Made by a program: the position numbers and the translations under genes
Notes under the pieces: model-generated
The model's database searches: none
Seen by the model: the letters and a program-made list of their open reading frames with translations, nothing else
What the model was told of the DNA's origin: nothing
Shown here: positions 10,423-58,415 of the stretch, in pieces
Numbering within the stretch: the stretch's first letter is position 1
Layout of the letters: each line of letters starts with the position of its first letter
DNA from: Escherichia phage vB_EcoS_FFH_1
Sequence record: KJ190157
DNA length: 64,000 nucleotides
Strand: one strand, 5' to 3'

Positions 10423-10456
10423 AGCCGGGTTGCTAGTCGACCTGGCTTTTATTTTA
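10423..10456 (+). terminator. putative intrinsic terminator after nrdD
   Basis: imperfect hairpin AGCCGGGTTGCTAGTCGACCTGGCT followed by TTTTATTTTATTT. Confidence 0.45.
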
Positions 10457-11095: not shown

Positions 11096-11258
11096 TCCAG
11101 AAAACATGCTTATTGAGCAATGGAACTTTGGTTATAATGCCGGTATAGCTACTTGTATTGCTAGATTGGATATGCTTATTAAGCAAGAAAAGGTACGCCC
11201 GGAGGAAGCAATTTTACTCCGAAATATTATCGAAGGATTTAAGCAAGGAATCGTATAG
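11064..11258 (+). CDS. hypothetical protein (64 aa)
   Basis: ORF in operon context. Confidence 0.35.
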   Translation: MDFLNQSLKSNPENMLIEQWNFGYNAGIATCIARLDMLIKQEKVRPEEAILLRNIIEGFKQGIV

Positions 11259-12082
11259 TGCGTAGACTAATTATTATTAGCGGTGCGGGTTTGAGTGTTG
11301 AAAGTGGTGTACGAGCTTTTCGTACTGATACTGCTAGTGGTAAAGCATTGTGGGATGATTATAATCTAGAAGAAGTATGTAATATTCATGCCTTTCGTGG
11401 TAATTTTTATCATAAAACCCATATGTTTTACAACAAGCGACGTGAAGAGTTAGAAACTGTTGAACCTAACCTTGCGCATCTTCGTATTGGTGAGTGGTAT
11501 AAGAAATATCCGGGTCAAGTAGTAAATTTGACTACTAACATTGATGACCTTATTGAGCGTGCTGGTGTTCCACATAATGATATTCTCCACATTCATGGAT
11601 ACTTAAAGGAGGTTGTTGTAGCTGATAGCTACAATAGTAGTAATAAACGAATTATTGATGTTGGGTATAACTCTATTGACCCAGAGGATTATAAATGGGT
11701 TAAACCTAACGTTATCTTCTTTGGTGAGCATGCTCCAGCATATACAGAAATGTACAATGTTTTTGATGGTATTACCAGTCAAGATATGATCATTGTGGTT
11801 GGTTGCTCTAACCAAGTAATTAACTTCTACTGGGAATTATTTCCTGTTCTTAATTTGACTGCTGCCAAATTAATGGTAGTTAACTACTACGATAGTGCCC
11901 TAGCGGCAGAACCAGGCTATCAAGGTATGACTCGTAGTGAGATGTACCAGTTGGAAGATCGTGGTATTCCTTACTGGAGTAAAGGTGCGGTAGATGCTTT
12001 TAGTGACCCTGATTTTATTGCTCGTGTGGAAGCCCATTTAGAGGGTAGACCTTACGTGCCAGGGAAACAAATATGTCCATAA
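11258..12082 (+). CDS. Sir2-family (sirtuin-like) NAD-dependent enzyme, lacking the Zn-ribbon cysteines
   Basis: Sirtuin motifs in order: GAGLSVESGVRAFR, TTNIDDL, catalytic LHIHGYL, PNVIFFGEHAP, VVGCSNQV; no CxxC...CxxC; GTG start overlapping upstream stop. Confidence 0.75.
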   Translation: MRRLIIISGAGLSVESGVRAFRTDTASGKALWDDYNLEEVCNIHAFRGNFYHKTHMFYNKRREELETVEPNLAHLRIGEWYKKYPGQVVNLTTNIDDLIERAGVPHNDILHIHGYLKEVVVADSYNSSNKRIIDVGYNSIDPEDYKWVKPNVIFFGEHAPAYTEMYNVFDGITSQDMIIVVGCSNQVINFYWELFPVLNLTAAKLMVVNYYDSALAAEPGYQGMTRSEMYQLEDRGIPYWSKGAVDAFSDPDFIARVEAHLEGRPYVPGKQICP

Positions 12083-12255
12083 TTAAATCTGTGTATACAC
12101 ACCCTGATGATATATTTGTATGGGCGGACGGTAGTTGGTGCTATCGCTGTGAACTGTGGGAAATGGACTATAAATCCGATGACTATGGTGTCATATATGT
12201 TGATACGGCTGAGTATGATACGTTCTTAGAAAGGAACAAAAATGGAAATAAGTAA
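12073..12255 (+). CDS. hypothetical protein (60 aa)
   Basis: short ORF overlapping both neighbours; no motif. Confidence 0.3.
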   Translation: MSIIKSVYTHPDDIFVWADGSWCYRCELWEMDYKSDDYGVIYVDTAEYDTFLERNKNGNK

Positions 12256-12750: not shown

Positions 12751-13179
12751 ATGTTCAATAATGTATTCTCTAAAGAAGCTAACCCAATTTTGGTTAACTT
12801 TTGGCGTACTCTCCCAGCTAGCCTGTATAATGAGGCTATTAACTCTTTGAAAATATGGTGTGAGAATAACGAAATCTCCTTTGCTTTTAAAGATGATATT
12901 GATGAGGCTCCCTGTATTGTTTTAATTGTGCAGGTAGAGGAGGGTCTTGAAGAGATTGTGGGCTGGAAAGAGTTAGACGAAATGGGCTTAGTTTTTGCGT
13001 TAAATTATAAACTGTTTATGCCTGCTAAGCATCGCCTTGTTGTTAACTATAAAACTAGTGAATCTCCTGGTTTTCAGGTTAATGAACGTTATGGTTGGTC
13101 TTACTCACCGGAAGAAGTAAATGAGGGGATTCAGAAACTTCGACGTTTCGGGTATATGATCCCGGGTTTAACTGCTTAA
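12751..13179 (+). CDS. hypothetical protein, paralog A of tandem pair
   Basis: 142 aa; shares conserved blocks (SF.F...PCI, MGL..ALN..LF.P, L.R.G..PGL) with the next ORF. Confidence 0.5.
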   Translation: MFNNVFSKEANPILVNFWRTLPASLYNEAINSLKIWCENNEISFAFKDDIDEAPCIVLIVQVEEGLEEIVGWKELDEMGLVFALNYKLFMPAKHRLVVNYKTSESPGFQVNERYGWSYSPEEVNEGIQKLRRFGYMIPGLTA

Positions 13180-13188
13180 GGAGGCAGG

Positions 13189-13581
13189 ATGGAACAAGTA
13201 TATTGGCGTCAGATTGACCCTAGTTTGGTGAAACGTGCGGAGAAGCTGCTACAACGTTGGTTGGGGGTAAGGCAAGCCTCCTTCTCTTTTCCGGAGCAGC
13301 AAACGGATGATCCATGCATTGGCGTTTTCCTGTCTGGATATGCCGGGGAATGGGAGATGGATTGGAATGAATTGTCCGCTATGGGTTTAATTGTTGCCCT
13401 AAATTTCTCTTTGTTCCATCCACGTGGTTTGGCCATATGTCGTGTGCCTGATGACGGTTGTTCGCCCCATCTTTTACAGGTGGAAGATGATATTTGGGAG
13501 TACACTCCAGATATTCTCAAAGAAGCTAAAGAACAATTAAACCGTGTTGGGATTTATGTTCCAGGCCTAAATGATGAATGA
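13189..13581 (+). CDS. hypothetical protein, paralog B of tandem pair
   Basis: 130 aa; AGGAGG SD; homologous to 12751..13179; followed by intrinsic terminator. Confidence 0.5.
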   Translation: MEQVYWRQIDPSLVKRAEKLLQRWLGVRQASFSFPEQQTDDPCIGVFLSGYAGEWEMDWNELSAMGLIVALNFSLFHPRGLAICRVPDDGCSPHLLQVEDDIWEYTPDILKEAKEQLNRVGIYVPGLNDE

Positions 13582-13605
13582 TTTTTACTAGCTGAACTCT
13601 GATTA

Positions 13606-13628
13606 CCGAGTCAAAATGACTCGGTTTT
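13606..13628 (+). terminator. intrinsic terminator after paralog B
   Basis: CCGAGTCA-AAA-TGACTCGG 8-bp stem followed by TTTT. Confidence 0.65.
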
Positions 13629-13672
13629 ATCCGTACTCAAGACCAATGATAGCACCATCCGGAAAATTTTAC

Positions 13673-13701
13673 TTGCAGGATGCCCAAAATCTTGATATAA
13701 T
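13673..13701 (+). promoter_or_regulatory. strong sigma70-type promoter TTGCAG-N17-TATAAT with TGn extended -10, no ORF downstream
   Basis: -35 13673-13678, TGA 13693-13695, -10 13696-13701. Confidence 0.5.
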
Positions 13702-14193
13702 ATTTATATTGAGAGACATTAGTAAAAATTGATTTTGCTAATTTTTCTTGTTTACAATCCGCGATACGGAACAGTTAGGCTGCCCCATTAAGGGTTGTTT
13801 TAACTATTACTAGTGTTTATATTGCATTAGTTAATCTTCAATTAAGTGATCTGTGTACCCTGAATTCGGAAAGGTAAATCCAAACCGTGCATATTTAGCT
13901 CGTTATATAGGCAGAGCTTTATATGGGGGTGCGAACGAAAAGAGCAGCGAATGGCGGCACGTACAGTAGTCACCTACCAATAGGATAGTGAGGACAAATA
14001 GAATCGGCTTAGCGGCCAATGACCTAGGTTCTATTCTGTATATGAGCGAAGAGAGCACAGCACTGAGATATGATAACTTATTCATATTGTTTGATGATAA
14101 TTGATGTTTACGTAAATAGTAGTAATAGTTGTTCTATTCTTTCTGAATAGTCCTAAAGAAAAGATTTCTATTAATCAACACAGGAGTATTGTT

Positions 14194-16983
14194 GTGTTTT
14201 CTATCCTCCAAGGTCACGCCGGTTTTTCTCGTGATTTAGCAACAGGTATTTGGCGAGAAATCAAAGCGGAAGATTATACCTTTGCCAAACGATTCTCGAA
14301 AGAGCATCCAGAAGGTAAACCAGCTTCTATGCCCTTCAAATTTGATGTAATAGAAGAGCACGACCCACAAAGCCTTGCCGAAATGTTACCACTTATGAGA
14401 CGTTTAACGTCTGACCCTCATATCGTTGCGGTACGAGGTCGATGTCTTGCACCTAAAAATAATGTGCGACGTAAGAAAGGTAACTTTAATGTATCCAACC
14501 CTAGCAATATTATTGCTATGGACGTGGATGGTATCCTAGATACCGGTGGGTATGACAAGTTTAATCTTGTAGGTATGGCTCGCCACATTATTAAGATGTT
14601 GAATAGTATTAGTGAGGATATGTTTCCTCTTGATGCAGGGTTTATTGCTCATGCATCGTCTTCGGCTGGCCTAAAACCAGGTATCCGAATGCACTTAATG
14701 CTAGAATCTAACGTCAAGGTAACTCAAGGTCAGTTAAAGTTCTTATTTACGTCTATCAATGATAGTAGTAAGCAAAAATTCGGTTTTGATATTGCCGACT
14801 TAGCTTATTACTCATCTGTCCAGCTTCACTATTTTGCCGACCCTTTATTTAGCGATGGTATTGTTGATCCGTTTAAAGCGGAGAGTAAGCCACGTCTGGT
14901 ATATGTTAAAGGTTCGAAGGTAAATTTGCCCAATAATCTGGTTGACTATGAAACAACTAGAGGGGAATTTAAGGAAGAGTTTTATTCTTTACTTGATCAA
15001 ATTAAAGGCAAAAAGATTGCTTCTGATAAAGTAGAAGAAACCATCAGCGAATTGGAAGAAGCCGAGGATGGGGTGTACTTGCGTATTATCCCCAAACTCT
15101 ACCATAGAGCATTAGAGGATGGTGTTGATTTCGCATGGCTAGAACGCGAGATTAAACCCGCTTTATCTGAATATATTGCAACTAAAGATAACAGTCGTAA
15201 TATTCAAGATTACTTTAATAACGGTCGTAAGCAGGCTCTCAAAGCGTTTGTTAATAATTCTAAACGTGAGATCCCATTAAATCTGAAGGGTGTTCCACTC
15301 AAGAAATTAGAAGTGGATTCTCCACCAGAAGTTCCGTACCTGAAGATTAACATTGTGCCTCCAAAAGGCCATATAACATTTGTTAAGGCAAGTCTTGGTA
15401 CTGGTAAGACTACGGCAGTAACTAAATGGCTGGACGCAGGTGTTCTTCCTGGCAACTTTTTAGCAGTTACAAATACTAGAGCACTGGTATCTTCAAACGC
15501 TAAGAAATTTAGCGCAGGACAATATGATAAGTCTGTAGATATGCTCAACTTTAAACGTGGAGCTATTGATCGTATGTCTACAACTATCCACTCTTTGCAT
15601 AAGTTCAAAAGTTTTATTGGTCAAATAGATACCATTTTTATTGATGAATGTGATGCTGTAATGAATGATCTATTATTCGCACCTGTTGTTAAGCAACGTC
15701 GCGAATGTATTCAAGTTCTACGTGACATCCTCATGACAGCTAAAACTGTAATTCTATCAGATGGTGATATTAGTGCCGAAACTATTGAAGCATATGGTTC
15801 TCTAATTGATTTTGATAAACCAGTAGCATTTTATAATCATCACCGTAAGATGCTGTCAAAAGCTCATGCTTATGAGTTCCCGGATGAATCCAGTATTTGG
15901 GTTGCACTTCAGACCTCTCTAGAGATGGGTGAGAAATCTATCCTAGTATCTGATTGTGGGCCGGATGAACTGAATGAGAAGGGCATGGCATTGCGTCGTA
16001 ATACGGGTGCGCTAGTTAAGGAAATCCACTCAAACTCCACTTCAGATGTGGATATTAGACGTATTCTGGATTATACGACTAATGAGTTAATTGATCAACA
16101 AATTGACTGCTTATTATGTAGTCCATCCGTAACGAGTGGCGTTGATTTCAACTATTTTGATAACGTATTTGTTATTACTAGAACTAGTAATCAAGCGCCA
16201 AACATGCGTTTCCAAGCAATTAGGCGCGACCGTGGTGCTCAGAATATCTATTATTTTATTGATAAATCTACGAGTGGATTCTCCGCAGGTTCTGAACAAT
16301 ATAATATTGATGAGGGTTGGCTGGAGTTAGCACAGCAATTATACGCACGTCGCAGAGAGCTAGAATCTAGGAACTATACTAGTACTTTACGTTATTACTT
16401 GCTTGATCAGGGTGCAACTATTGATATTTTCAGTGAAAGTTGGGGAACTATTGAAGGTGCTGGTAAAGAGTACACAGAAGAGCGAATTAAAGCTATTCTA
16501 CATTCAACTCCTGATTATTGTGCTCCACGTCATGCGGATGCGTATGAAGCTAAACTACTTCTTGTCCGCTATTATCATCTTGAGTCTATTAAAGATGTAA
16601 CAGTTGAGCATGTTGAACAATATATCAAAGATAAACCGAATGATCGAGCTGCATTCTTCCATAAGATGCACGAGATGTTCTGGGAAGATATTAAGAAGTG
16701 TTCAAATGTGACCATTAAACCATTCATAGAGGCTCTGAAAGGTAAGAAGAAAGACTTCTTCCTTAAAACAGGTCAGAGTGCTAACCCAAAATATGCTAGA
16801 ATGTATCTTGGTATGATGGGTATTGGTAAGGATATGAACACTGAAAATATTGTAGACTGGTACAGAACCTATTGTAAAATCGAGTGTATGCCAATCCCAT
16901 ATAAGTTTATGACTGATGAGGAGAAACATATGCATGATGAAGCAATGGCAGAGCTAGGTGCTAGAAATGACAGTGAAGAATAA
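14194..16983 (+). CDS. large P-loop NTPase (929 aa), putative replication initiator / origin-binding helicase-like protein
   Basis: GTG start with AGGAG SD; central Walker A LGTGKTT and Walker B FIDECDAV; ~380-aa N-terminal domain of unknown fold. Confidence 0.55.
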   Translation: MFSILQGHAGFSRDLATGIWREIKAEDYTFAKRFSKEHPEGKPASMPFKFDVIEEHDPQSLAEMLPLMRRLTSDPHIVAVRGRCLAPKNNVRRKKGNFNVSNPSNIIAMDVDGILDTGGYDKFNLVGMARHIIKMLNSISEDMFPLDAGFIAHASSSAGLKPGIRMHLMLESNVKVTQGQLKFLFTSINDSSKQKFGFDIADLAYYSSVQLHYFADPLFSDGIVDPFKAESKPRLVYVKGSKVNLPNNLVDYETTRGEFKEEFYSLLDQIKGKKIASDKVEETISELEEAEDGVYLRIIPKLYHRALEDGVDFAWLEREIKPALSEYIATKDNSRNIQDYFNNGRKQALKAFVNNSKREIPLNLKGVPLKKLEVDSPPEVPYLKINIVPPKGHITFVKASLGTGKTTAVTKWLDAGVLPGNFLAVTNTRALVSSNAKKFSAGQYDKSVDMLNFKRGAIDRMSTTIHSLHKFKSFIGQIDTIFIDECDAVMNDLLFAPVVKQRRECIQVLRDILMTAKTVILSDGDISAETIEAYGSLIDFDKPVAFYNHHRKMLSKAHAYEFPDESSIWVALQTSLEMGEKSILVSDCGPDELNEKGMALRRNTGALVKEIHSNSTSDVDIRRILDYTTNELIDQQIDCLLCSPSVTSGVDFNYFDNVFVITRTSNQAPNMRFQAIRRDRGAQNIYYFIDKSTSGFSAGSEQYNIDEGWLELAQQLYARRRELESRNYTSTLRYYLLDQGATIDIFSESWGTIEGAGKEYTEERIKAILHSTPDYCAPRHADAYEAKLLLVRYYHLESIKDVTVEHVEQYIKDKPNDRAAFFHKMHEMFWEDIKKCSNVTIKPFIEALKGKKKDFFLKTGQSANPKYARMYLGMMGIGKDMNTENIVDWYRTYCKIECMPIPYKFMTDEEKHMHDEAMAELGARNDSEE

Positions 16984-57201: not shown

Positions 57202-58415
57202 TCTTTATCTCCCTCGGTGGAACCTTGAGGTCTACCACCTTCTTGACCAGATACACCTGTTGCAGAACCAGCAACGTTAGCAGGAATACGAATCCTATCC
57301 ATCTGCTCATCATCTAAAGGTTCAAGGTTCAGCTCTAAACGAGCTTCGTTACCAGTCATAATACCATTATTAACCAATGAGGTTAAATGTTTAGCCTCAG
57401 CTTCTTTATCTGGTGTTAATGCAGCTACCTCCTTAGTATTAGGAGTAATCTTATAACCAAAAAAGAAAGTAAGAGAACTAGTCAGTTTGTTCAGCATAGG
57501 AATGATAGTCATATAATAGAACAATTCGATGTTTGGTCGAATATTCGCATTATTACCACCATCAAGCAGTACTTGCGGAACTCCAAAGGCTAGACAAATA
57601 GATTTATTAAATCCTTCGATGTCTTCCTTAAAGTCTAGATCTTTAAAAGAGGATATTTGGGAGTACGGTTTAGCTTTCATACCACCATCTAGAATCAGGA
57701 CAGAAGACTGACCAGTACTAGGATTATAATCGAGTTGTAATTCTTCTTGTTTACGCTCACGCAATTTCTTGTTCAGGATTTCATCCGTTTCAAGAATAAG
57801 ACCAATCACGGTTCCATTATCTAGGAATTTCTCTTTAAAGTTAAGCATCTTAGAACGCTTCTCAAGAGAATCAATAACAGTAGCAACACGAGATTGTCCA
57901 GAAATTTGAGAGTTTGTGCCGCACACGTAACTGTTATCCTTTATAAAGATAATCTCATCTACGCGATAGTCTATCTGATTATTAAATATAAATTTTTTGA
58001 TAAACTTATTGGCATCTGCCTCGACCTGCATAAGAGCAGCCGGGACATGGTAAAGCGATGTGCCATCCCAATAGATGTATGCACAACCTTCAAAAAGTAG
58101 GTCAGTGACTACAAGTCTACGGAATGTGCTTATATCCATGAATGGATTAGGTCGTACATTTAAGAGAGTGTCTAGAGTCTTTGTTTTGACGCCATTAGCG
58201 TACGTAACAATATTATATTTATCTCCGACAGTATAAGAACACTCCGCCGCACTATCTATAACCATATTGGCAGTTCGATTGAGAATCTCAATCTTGCTAT
58301 AGGCTTGTCCAGTGGTAAAAGGCTTACGGTTAGTGCGATGACTAACTGGTTCCATGTCTCTTATAATACGTTGACCCGGATTTAACTTTTCAGTAATCCA
58401 GCTTTTTAAACCCAT
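57198..58415 (-). CDS. portal protein (pb7-like)
   Basis: 405 aa downstream of terminase/HNH; overlaps neighbours (TAATG, ATGA). Confidence 0.75.
   Translation of the reverse strand: MGLKSWITEKLNPGQRIIRDMEPVSHRTNRKPFTTGQAYSKIEILNRTANMVIDSAAECSYTVGDKYNIVTYANGVKTKTLDTLLNVRPNPFMDISTFRRLVVTDLLFEGCAYIYWDGTSLYHVPAALMQVEADANKFIKKFIFNNQIDYRVDEIIFIKDNSYVCGTNSQISGQSRVATVIDSLEKRSKMLNFKEKFLDNGTVIGLILETDEILNKKLRERKQEELQLDYNPSTGQSSVLILDGGMKAKPYSQISSFKDLDFKEDIEGFNKSICLAFGVPQVLLDGGNNANIRPNIELFYYMTIIPMLNKLTSSLTFFFGYKITPNTKEVAALTPDKEAEAKHLTSLVNNGIMTGNEARLELNLEPLDDEQMDRIRIPANVAGSATGVSGQEGGRPQGSTEGDKE

Follow-up and report, generated by a model that had tools for sequence, protein, structure and literature searches.

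In a 64,000-nucleotide (nt) stretch of Escherichia phage vB_EcoS_FFH_1 (sequence record KJ190157; hereafter, the window), we investigated two adjacent open reading frames (ORFs), ORF A and, downstream of it, ORF B. The original prediction, made from the letters of the sequence, described them as a tandem pair of diverged paralogs of unknown function, and this description is correct: both ORFs lie on the plus strand where they were reported (Table 1), and the BLASTP alignment of the two proteins, which spans 124 residues and has a single gap, shows 32% identity. At an E value of 4e-20, this similarity greatly exceeds what chance would give, and the paralogy is therefore genuine. As judged from their motifs, the divergence of the pair is asymmetric, as ORF B is a canonical member of the uncharacterized DUF7415 family, whereas ORF A is degenerate yet conserved. 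We assign a probability of about 40% to the reading that the canonical core of this family is an acidic, nonenzymatic binding module acting in DNA replication or nucleotide supply, with ORF B as the canonical subunit and ORF A as its diverged partner.

The paralogs and their asymmetric divergence

By its sequence, the window is that of a T5-like phage of the genus Tequintavirus. The roughly 2.2 kb surrounding the pair have 96 to 97% nucleotide identity to Salmonella phage oldekolle and Escherichia phage HdH2 (Tequintavirus, Demerecviridae). The two proteins match gp107 (ORF A) and gp106 (ORF B) of vB_EcoS_FFH_1 exactly (100%) and have 92% and 95% amino acid (aa) identity to T5.106 and T5.107 of phage T5, respectively (YP_006934.1 and YP_006935.1; NC_005859). 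The T5 genes share their order, position, flanks, strand, and length with the pair in the window. In addition to this high identity, the two genes are adjacent and located 3′ of a Sir2-family gene and a HAD gene and 5′ of a terminator and the gene for the Obp helicase, as expected for an orthologous pair. Both T5 genes are annotated as hypothetical, and there is no biological difference between the two pairs.

The conserved blocks named in the original prediction (SF.F...PCI, MGL..ALN..LF.P, and a C-terminal L.R.G...PGL) are all seen in the alignment of ORFs A and B, although its shorthand had the spacing of the first and last blocks slightly wrong. Its statement that no known domain could be recognized is out of date. 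Both proteins match Pfam PF24187 (DUF7415), with 115 bits for ORF A and 108.3 bits for ORF B against a curated gathering cutoff of 27 bits, and both match phrog_2502 (PHROG 2502) at E values of ∼1e-61. According to one record, pVOG VOG3964 also holds both paralogs. All three families are of unknown function. Because one PHROG and one pVOG contain both proteins, their relatedness is already implicit in the databases. In the main texts of the literature, we found no relevant mention of DUF7415, T5.106/T5.107, or the RefSeq accessions, and the daunorubicin/Bas33 paper, the phiR2-01 proteogenomics paper, and the transposon-essentiality preprints contained nothing on the two T5 genes.

Copy number was compared across relatives and does vary. 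A tblastn search returned 524 phage records with approximately two copies per genome, mainly from Markadamsvirinae and Klebsiella T5-like (Sugarland-type) phages. Two copies are found in T5-like phages, in Epseptimavirus (beppo), and in Klebsiella phage Sugarland, in which the two DUF7415 genes overlap via ATGA; Serratia phage Kamaji and Pectobacterium phage DU_PP_V have one. As the duplication is common to Markadamsvirinae and Sugarlandvirus, it is old and not a recent expansion. The synteny is constant across Demerecviridae, running from the Sir2-family gene through the DUF7415 gene(s) and the terminator (where annotated) to the Obp origin-binding helicase. The HAD gene, on the other hand, is present in Markadamsvirinae only and absent from Sugarland, Kamaji, and DU_PP_V.

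The asymmetry concerns seven motif positions (N60, S63, H77, G80, A82, R85, and P87 in ORF B numbering), which are retained in ORF B, in the downstream copy of Sugarland, and in all single-copy proteins. The upstream copy lacks them in both Markadamsvirinae and Sugarland; in ORF A, the changes are N60K, S63D, H77M, G80K, A82R, R85V, and P87Y. ORF A keeps the motif positions W, E, G, L, N, P78, S92, W, and Y and thus matches the canonical motif in part only, while ORF B matches every position of W-N-E-x-S-x-x-G-L...N...H-P-x-G-x-A-x-x-R-x-P-x-x-G-x-S...W-x-Y. In comparisons with T5 and an Epseptimavirus, the ratio of nonsynonymous to synonymous substitution rates (dN/dS) was 0.08 to 0.11 for ORF A and 0.08 to 0.23 for ORF B. 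The neighboring Sir2-family gene had comparable values (0.10 to 0.20), and the HAD gene had lower ones (0.05 to 0.07). Purifying selection on both members of the pair indicates that they are real coding genes. We also noted a 103-aa antisense ORF (minus strand, positions 13209 to 13520) entirely within ORF B, which is probably a chance ORF, as the ORF B frame is under purifying selection and widely conserved.

While the canonical core is nearly invariant among ORF B orthologs, a hairpin in the N-terminal lobe of ORF B is hypervariable. This cassette occurs in at least four sequence types with insertions and deletions between conserved flanks, and its column entropy is 1.2 to 1.25 bits compared to 0.24 to 0.40 bits in the flanks. 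Two mosaic proteins (P0008 and P0011) carry foreign cassettes within flanks of the window type. The equivalent region is also the most variable part of ORF A, but it is less variable there than in ORF B.

Using a 24-sequence alignment as the input, AlphaFold2 produced confident models for both proteins, with a predicted local distance difference test (pLDDT) score of 92.4 and a predicted template modeling (pTM) score of 0.86 for ORF B and scores of 87.3 and 0.82 for ORF A, in which disorder is limited to residues 1 to 12. The models predict one shared two-lobed alpha/beta fold, in which the elements follow each other as strand-helix-strand-strand, strand-(kinked) helix-strand-strand, a C-terminal helix, and a conserved ...PGL tail. 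The tail is invariant among ORF A orthologs and is common to ORF B as well. The follow-up by remote homology and structure prediction thus gave a fold and a family, but no relative with a solved structure: a Foldseek search against the PDB found no significant neighbor (best E value, 0.49), sequence and profile searches of the PDB returned nothing or noise, and a structure search of BFVD returned other DUF7415 proteins only.

The Pfam model matches each half of ORF A and ORF B separately (E values of 1e-15 to 1e-17), and the order of secondary-structure elements repeats in both halves. In hhalign and hidden Markov model comparisons of the N-terminal halves with canonical domains, however, the probability was ∼20% or less (mostly ∼1% or less), with E values of >0.04. 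By comparison, residues 55 to 106 of ORF B align with the single-domain family at a probability of 99.9% (hhalign; E = 1.5e-31). Both proteins are acidic, with isoelectric points (pI) of 4.75 for ORF A and 4.53 for ORF B. The median among relatives is 4.87, and 79% of them fall, like the pair, between 4.5 and 4.9. This acidity speaks against direct nucleic acid binding.

The widespread core and its possible function

To place the pair within its family, we ran an exhaustive profile search of 1.84 billion representatives, which gave 153 relatives at an E value of ≤1e-3. A handful of very long, repeat-rich proteins with short matches near profile positions ∼81 to 125 were set aside as apparently spurious. 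About twenty of the relatives cover the whole protein, and most others cover only profile positions ∼56 to 110, i.e., the C-terminal lobe. The consensus of this ∼50-aa core is IDWNExSxxGLIxRINxEILHPLGLAxxRDPxTGxSxGxLVxDDGxWEY, in which the N and one G never vary and W, S, H-P, G-L, G-x-S, and D hardly do. DUF7415 occurs in about 900 sequenced phages and many prophages, mostly as a stand-alone protein of 57 to 95 aa with a single canonical core, in the genomes of Pseudomonas, Klebsiella, Salmonella, Enterobacter, and Vibrio and in phages. These genes are always labeled "hypothetical" or "DUF7415." The core motif kept by ORF B recurs in hundreds of such stand-alone proteins of phages and prophages. 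The proteins in the window differ from this typical form by their additional N-terminal lobe and C-terminal helix with its PGL tail, and the core of ORF A differs further by being degenerate. When T5-like phages are compared with P2-like prophages from other hosts, the canonical core has an identity of ∼50%; across phages that differ in family and host, the identity is ∼45 to 64%.

The genomic settings of the core are diverse. P2/186-like prophages of Salmonella and Klebsiella carry the stand-alone gene in their early operon, immediately 5′ of the replication initiator gene A (gpA). Among 80 IMG/VR loci, gpA is no more than two genes away in 31, a protein with a DPPY motif (Dam-like) is encoded by the next gene in 10, and DUF3850/ASCH is a neighbor in 5. 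In P2-like prophages of Pseudomonas, including phiCTX, the stand-alone gene is instead in the late operon, between the head-completion gene gpL and the tail gene gpX. The canonical core of the early P2/186-like gene and of the phiCTX-like gene is ∼46 to 53% identical to residues 55 to 106 of ORF B. Unlike the pair in the window, both are single lobed, 57 to 69 aa long, and found in temperate myoviruses. These two P2-like slots (before gene A in enterobacteria and between gpL and gpX in Pseudomonas) suggest independent insertions of a mobile accessory gene.

The T4-like phages of Klebsiella have a DUF7415 gene between nrdD and nrdG, and phage Lw1 has one near NudE; Td is also found among the neighbors of DUF7415 relatives. 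In Aeromonas T4-like phages, a single-domain DUF7415 gene directly follows RNA ligase 1, and a HAD_SAK_2 homolog found ∼2 kb upstream of it is 32 to 35% identical to the HAD_SAK_2 protein in the window. Other members of the family are located beside plasmid partition genes, and one locus is 4 kb from an Acb1 gene. Fusions among the relatives involve dATP/dGTP pyrophosphohydrolase (two cases), DUF3850/ASCH (two cases), dTMP kinase, Phage_Cox, PGDYG, DUF551, and a ClpX-type zinc finger.

The reading that we favor is that the DUF7415 core binds a partner that Gammaproteobacteria or their phages have conserved, most probably one in DNA replication or nucleotide supply. Binding, rather than nucleic acid contact or catalysis, is suggested by the acidic pI and by a domain of only ∼50 aa. 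The replication or nucleotide theme is suggested by the adjacency to gpA, by the slot between nrdD and nrdG, and by the fusions to pyrophosphohydrolase, dTMP kinase, and DUF3850/ASCH. It is also in line with the position of the pair in the window, which closes the operon that follows nrdD and has the Obp helicase gene as the next coding gene. ORF B would provide the canonical binding surface together with the variable hairpin, and ORF A may be a subfunctionalized partner that works with ORF B. The two would probably form a hetero-oligomer, with the adjacent and closely spaced genes yielding equal amounts of both subunits. Indirect hints of such a complex can be read from the 9-nt gap with a strong Shine-Dalgarno sequence between the genes, the ATGA overlap in Sugarland, and the asymmetric loss of motif positions.

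The sole functional datum for the pair comes from a published T5 knockdown screen by CRISPRi-ART, in which T5.107 was among 17 genes called "Fit" (Adler et al., Nat Microbiol 2025, PMC11879866). The others include A1, A2, pol, D11, D15, D3, and D5, and the presence of T5.107 alongside pol, D11, D15, D3, and D5 is a further reason for considering replication and nucleotide supply. The authors of the screen termed T5.107 "of entirely unknown function." T5.106 was "Not Fit" (score, −3.28; P = 0.17 [PMC11879866, supplementary files 1 and 16]). The fitness call agrees with the sequence asymmetry, as an effect was detected for the paralog that retains the canonical motif and not for the other.

Several observations weigh against this reading. 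The "Fit" call is marginal: with a score of −2.90 and an uncorrected Kolmogorov-Smirnov P value of 0.0215 across ∼160 genes, it is the weakest of the set, and the primase, the Obp helicase, and many structural genes were "Not Fit" in the same screen (PMC11879866). The genomic associations are weak evidence, since P2-like and T4-like phages have early operons that are either small or rich in replication and nucleotide genes in any case and since the domain also occurs in the Pseudomonas late operon and near plasmid partition genes. The conserved polar residues of the core (N, H, R, D, and S) would suit a small enzyme or a ligand pocket as well. Finally, the separate Pfam matches to the two halves and their repeated element order suggest an internal duplication, which our own profile comparisons of the N-terminal lobe with the core do not confirm.

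Phage T7 gp1.2 is a small early inhibitor of the host dGTPase. A comparable role for DUF7415, i.e., a small acidic early protein guarding the supply of deoxynucleoside triphosphates (dNTPs) through a conserved host enzyme, would be an analogy of function only and purely conjectural, but it would suit the fusions of DUF7415 relatives to dNTP enzymes.

Alternative explanations

The original prediction proposed that the paralogs are antidefense or host-takeover inhibitors, each blocking a different but related host protein, and in this case the hairpin of ORF B would tune specificity. We consider this somewhat less probable than the reading that we favor. Both proteins are small, acidic, and early, the family occupies accessory or moron-like positions in unrelated phages and prophages (including the locus close to Acb1), and the mosaic cassette of ORF B is what such a role could produce. 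The history of the pair fits less well, as the pair stems from an old, stable duplication, purifying selection on the two copies resembles that on the neighboring Sir2-family gene, and the divergence is asymmetric, with one copy canonical and the other stripped of seven motif positions. The identity of the core across families and hosts also points to a very conserved target and not to a variable immune protein. Moreover, T5.107 was weakly "Fit" in a laboratory E. coli strain, which is unexpected for a strain-specific antidefense gene; according to the authors of the screen, antidefense genes irrelevant to the screening strain were not seen as "Fit" (PMC11879866). Similarity to AcrIC4 (PDB 8dfo_M), a 57-aa anti-CRISPR protein that blocks the type I-C Cascade, was at noise level. 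A small oligomeric enzyme, or a "sponge" for nucleotides or other small molecules that acts on dNTPs or on modified or signaling nucleotides, seems unlikely, even though it would account for the invariant or nearly invariant polar positions of the core (N, H-P-x-G, R-D, G-x-S, and D-G-x-W-x-Y). The fusions to dATP/dGTP pyrophosphohydrolase, dTMP kinase, and the PUA-like DUF3850/ASCH, the occurrence of DUF3850 as a separate neighbor, and the proximity of nrdD/nrdG, NudE, and Td in other phages would fit such an activity as well. However, neither the structure nor the profile searches revealed a likeness to a fold or family of known enzymes or sponges, the domain is very small, and ORF A is maintained by selection despite lacking most of the conserved polar positions, which suits a scaffold or partner better than a catalyst.

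An accessory factor in RNA repair, partnering with the HAD_SAK_2 phosphatase-like protein and, elsewhere, with RNA ligase 1, is less probable still. The HAD_SAK_2 gene is directly 5′ of the pair in the window and in all Markadamsvirinae, and in Aeromonas T4-like phages, a stretch of ∼2.3 kb contains the HAD_SAK_2 homolog, RnlA, and the single-domain DUF7415 gene, all on one strand. Those Aeromonas phages are closely related, though, and count as one observation, while Sugarland, Kamaji, and DU_PP_V have DUF7415 genes but no HAD gene. Fusion to, and adjacency with, the ASCH-type DUF3850 would be in keeping with a role in RNA metabolism of this kind, but most members of the family reside in P2-like prophages with no RNA repair genes nearby, and the acidic pI speaks against RNA binding. 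The functions given in some GenBank and RefSeq records are effectively refuted. These labels ("tail protein" or "tail tube protein" in vB_EcoD-Elw, LmqsSP1, JLBYU43, and DU_PP_V and "exonuclease (ACLAME 70)" in several records) are all that backs a virion or nuclease role. The genes are on the early strand, in an early region between nrdD and the origin-binding helicase and far from the structural module. Pfam and NCBIfam return DUF7415 alone and no tail tube or nuclease family, the PHROG is annotated as "unknown function," and neither the PDB nor BFVD holds a significant tail tube or nuclease neighbor, so that location, family match, and fold all speak against both assignments. An N-terminal Lar-type restriction alleviation domain in some relatives was also considered, but this candidate had no support from Pfam or NCBIfam at an E value of ≤1e-3 and was dropped.

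Operon context and significance

The two paralogs are the last genes of an early operon that begins after the nrdD terminator (positions 10423 to 10447) and consists of three small ORFs, the Sir2-family gene, a 60-aa ORF, the HAD_SAK_2 gene, ORF A, and ORF B, followed by an intrinsic terminator (Table 1). An equivalent terminator site is annotated in HdH2, T5, and Sugarland. None of the eight operon proteins, including the Sir2-family protein, had a match in PADLOC.

Table 1. Coordinates of the paralogs, their predicted parts, and neighboring features in the window
Feature	Position	Strand	Basis or remark
ORF A, 142 aa	12751..13179	+	ORF list; T5.106 ortholog; vB_EcoS_FFH_1 gp107; upstream, motif-degenerate paralog
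ORF A N-terminal lobe (residues 15-65)	12793..12945	+	PF24187 on this half alone, E = 1.5e-17; predicted strand-helix-strand-strand
ORF A C-terminal lobe (residues 69-112), degenerate DUF7415 core	12955..13086	+	Pfam on this half alone, E = 2.7e-15
ORF A C-terminal helix and ...G(Y/F)x(I/V)PGL tail	13108..13176	+	AlphaFold2 helix 120-132
ORF B, 130 aa	13189..13581	+	ORF list; T5.107 ortholog; vB_EcoS_FFH_1 gp106; downstream, canonical-motif paralog
ORF B N-terminal lobe (residues 3-54)	13195..13350	+	Pfam on this half alone, E = 5.8e-16; AlphaFold2 strand 2-4, helix 11-25, strands 29-33 and 45-49
ORF B hypervariable mosaic cassette (residues ∼27-57, N-lobe hairpin)	13267..13359	+	Column entropy
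ORF B canonical DUF7415 core (residues 55-106), DWNELSxMGLxxALNxxxFHPxGLAxxRxPxxGxSP...W.Y	13351..13506	+	
ORF B C-terminal helix and ...GIYVPGL tail	13507..13578	+	AlphaFold2 helix 107-120; conserved in both paralogs
Shine-Dalgarno sequence of ORF B, AAGGAGG	13178..13184	+	Read from sequence; overlaps the ORF A stop codon (13177-13179), 4 nt 5′ of the ATG
Intrinsic terminator, CCGAGTC-AAAAT-GACTCGG, then TTTTAT	13606..13630	+	Read from sequence; end of the operon
Sir2-family gene (T5.102 ortholog)	11258..12082	+	PF02146, E = 4e-25
HAD_SAK_2 phosphatase-like gene (T5.105 ortholog), 168 aa	12242..12748	+	PF18143, E = 4e-20; directly 5′ of ORF A

The Sir2-family gene is 48 to 54% identical across genera and is the constant 5′ neighbor of the DUF7415 gene(s) in all Demerecviridae examined (T5, beppo, Sugarland, Kamaji, and DU_PP_V), for which its role does not appear to have been characterized. 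The RefSeq/PHROG-derived label of the HAD_SAK_2 gene is "Sir2 (NAD-dependent deacetylase)," which looks wrong, as the genuine Sir2-family gene is the one at positions 11258 to 12082. Between the two, a small phrog_5116 gene is present as a single 60-aa gene in the window (positions 12073 to 12255) and as two tandem genes in T5 (T5.103 and T5.104; T5 positions 57243 to 57601), and a second small tandem paralog beside the pair thus varies in copy number.

Downstream, a 612-nt noncoding gap (positions 13582 to 14193) separates the last gene of the operon from the gene for the 929-aa Obp origin-binding helicase (positions 14194 to 16983). The gap is kept in T5 and contains sigma-70-like promoter sites near positions 13673 to 13700 and 13729 to 13758. 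A scan of the gap for repeats gave only weak two-copy matches, and no Rfam family reached the gathering score anywhere in the 64 kb, including the gap.

Public databases already contain the genes and their family and, by implication, their relatedness, and the pair is not a new entity; we regard it as ordinary uncharacterized phage genes of modest interest. What our analysis adds is the two-lobe anatomy, the asymmetric motif loss in the upstream paralog, the copy number history within Demerecviridae, the mosaic hypervariable hairpin of ORF B, the absence of a solved structural relative, and the tie to the published weak fitness signal. In addition, the labels "tail tube protein," "tail protein," and "exonuclease" in GenBank and RefSeq, together with "Sir2" on the HAD gene, are not to be trusted. 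As T5.107 is one of 17 genes flagged for fitness in a genome-wide T5 knockdown screen, the pair is a sensible and cheap target for study, and a canonical paralog beside a degenerate one offers a built-in experimental control.

For the family, the point of interest is the unusual degree to which unrelated T5-like, T4-like, and P2-like phages have conserved the canonical 50-aa core, with neither a relative of solved structure nor a published function. A more far-reaching, speculative and on balance improbable, interpretation is that this core is an orphan-fold module that binds one universal host or phage factor of replication or dNTP metabolism and would represent a new class of host-takeover or counterdefense proteins. 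In T5-like phages, it would then act as a heterodimer of a canonical and a degenerate subunit, in which the variable hairpin may retune a second specificity.

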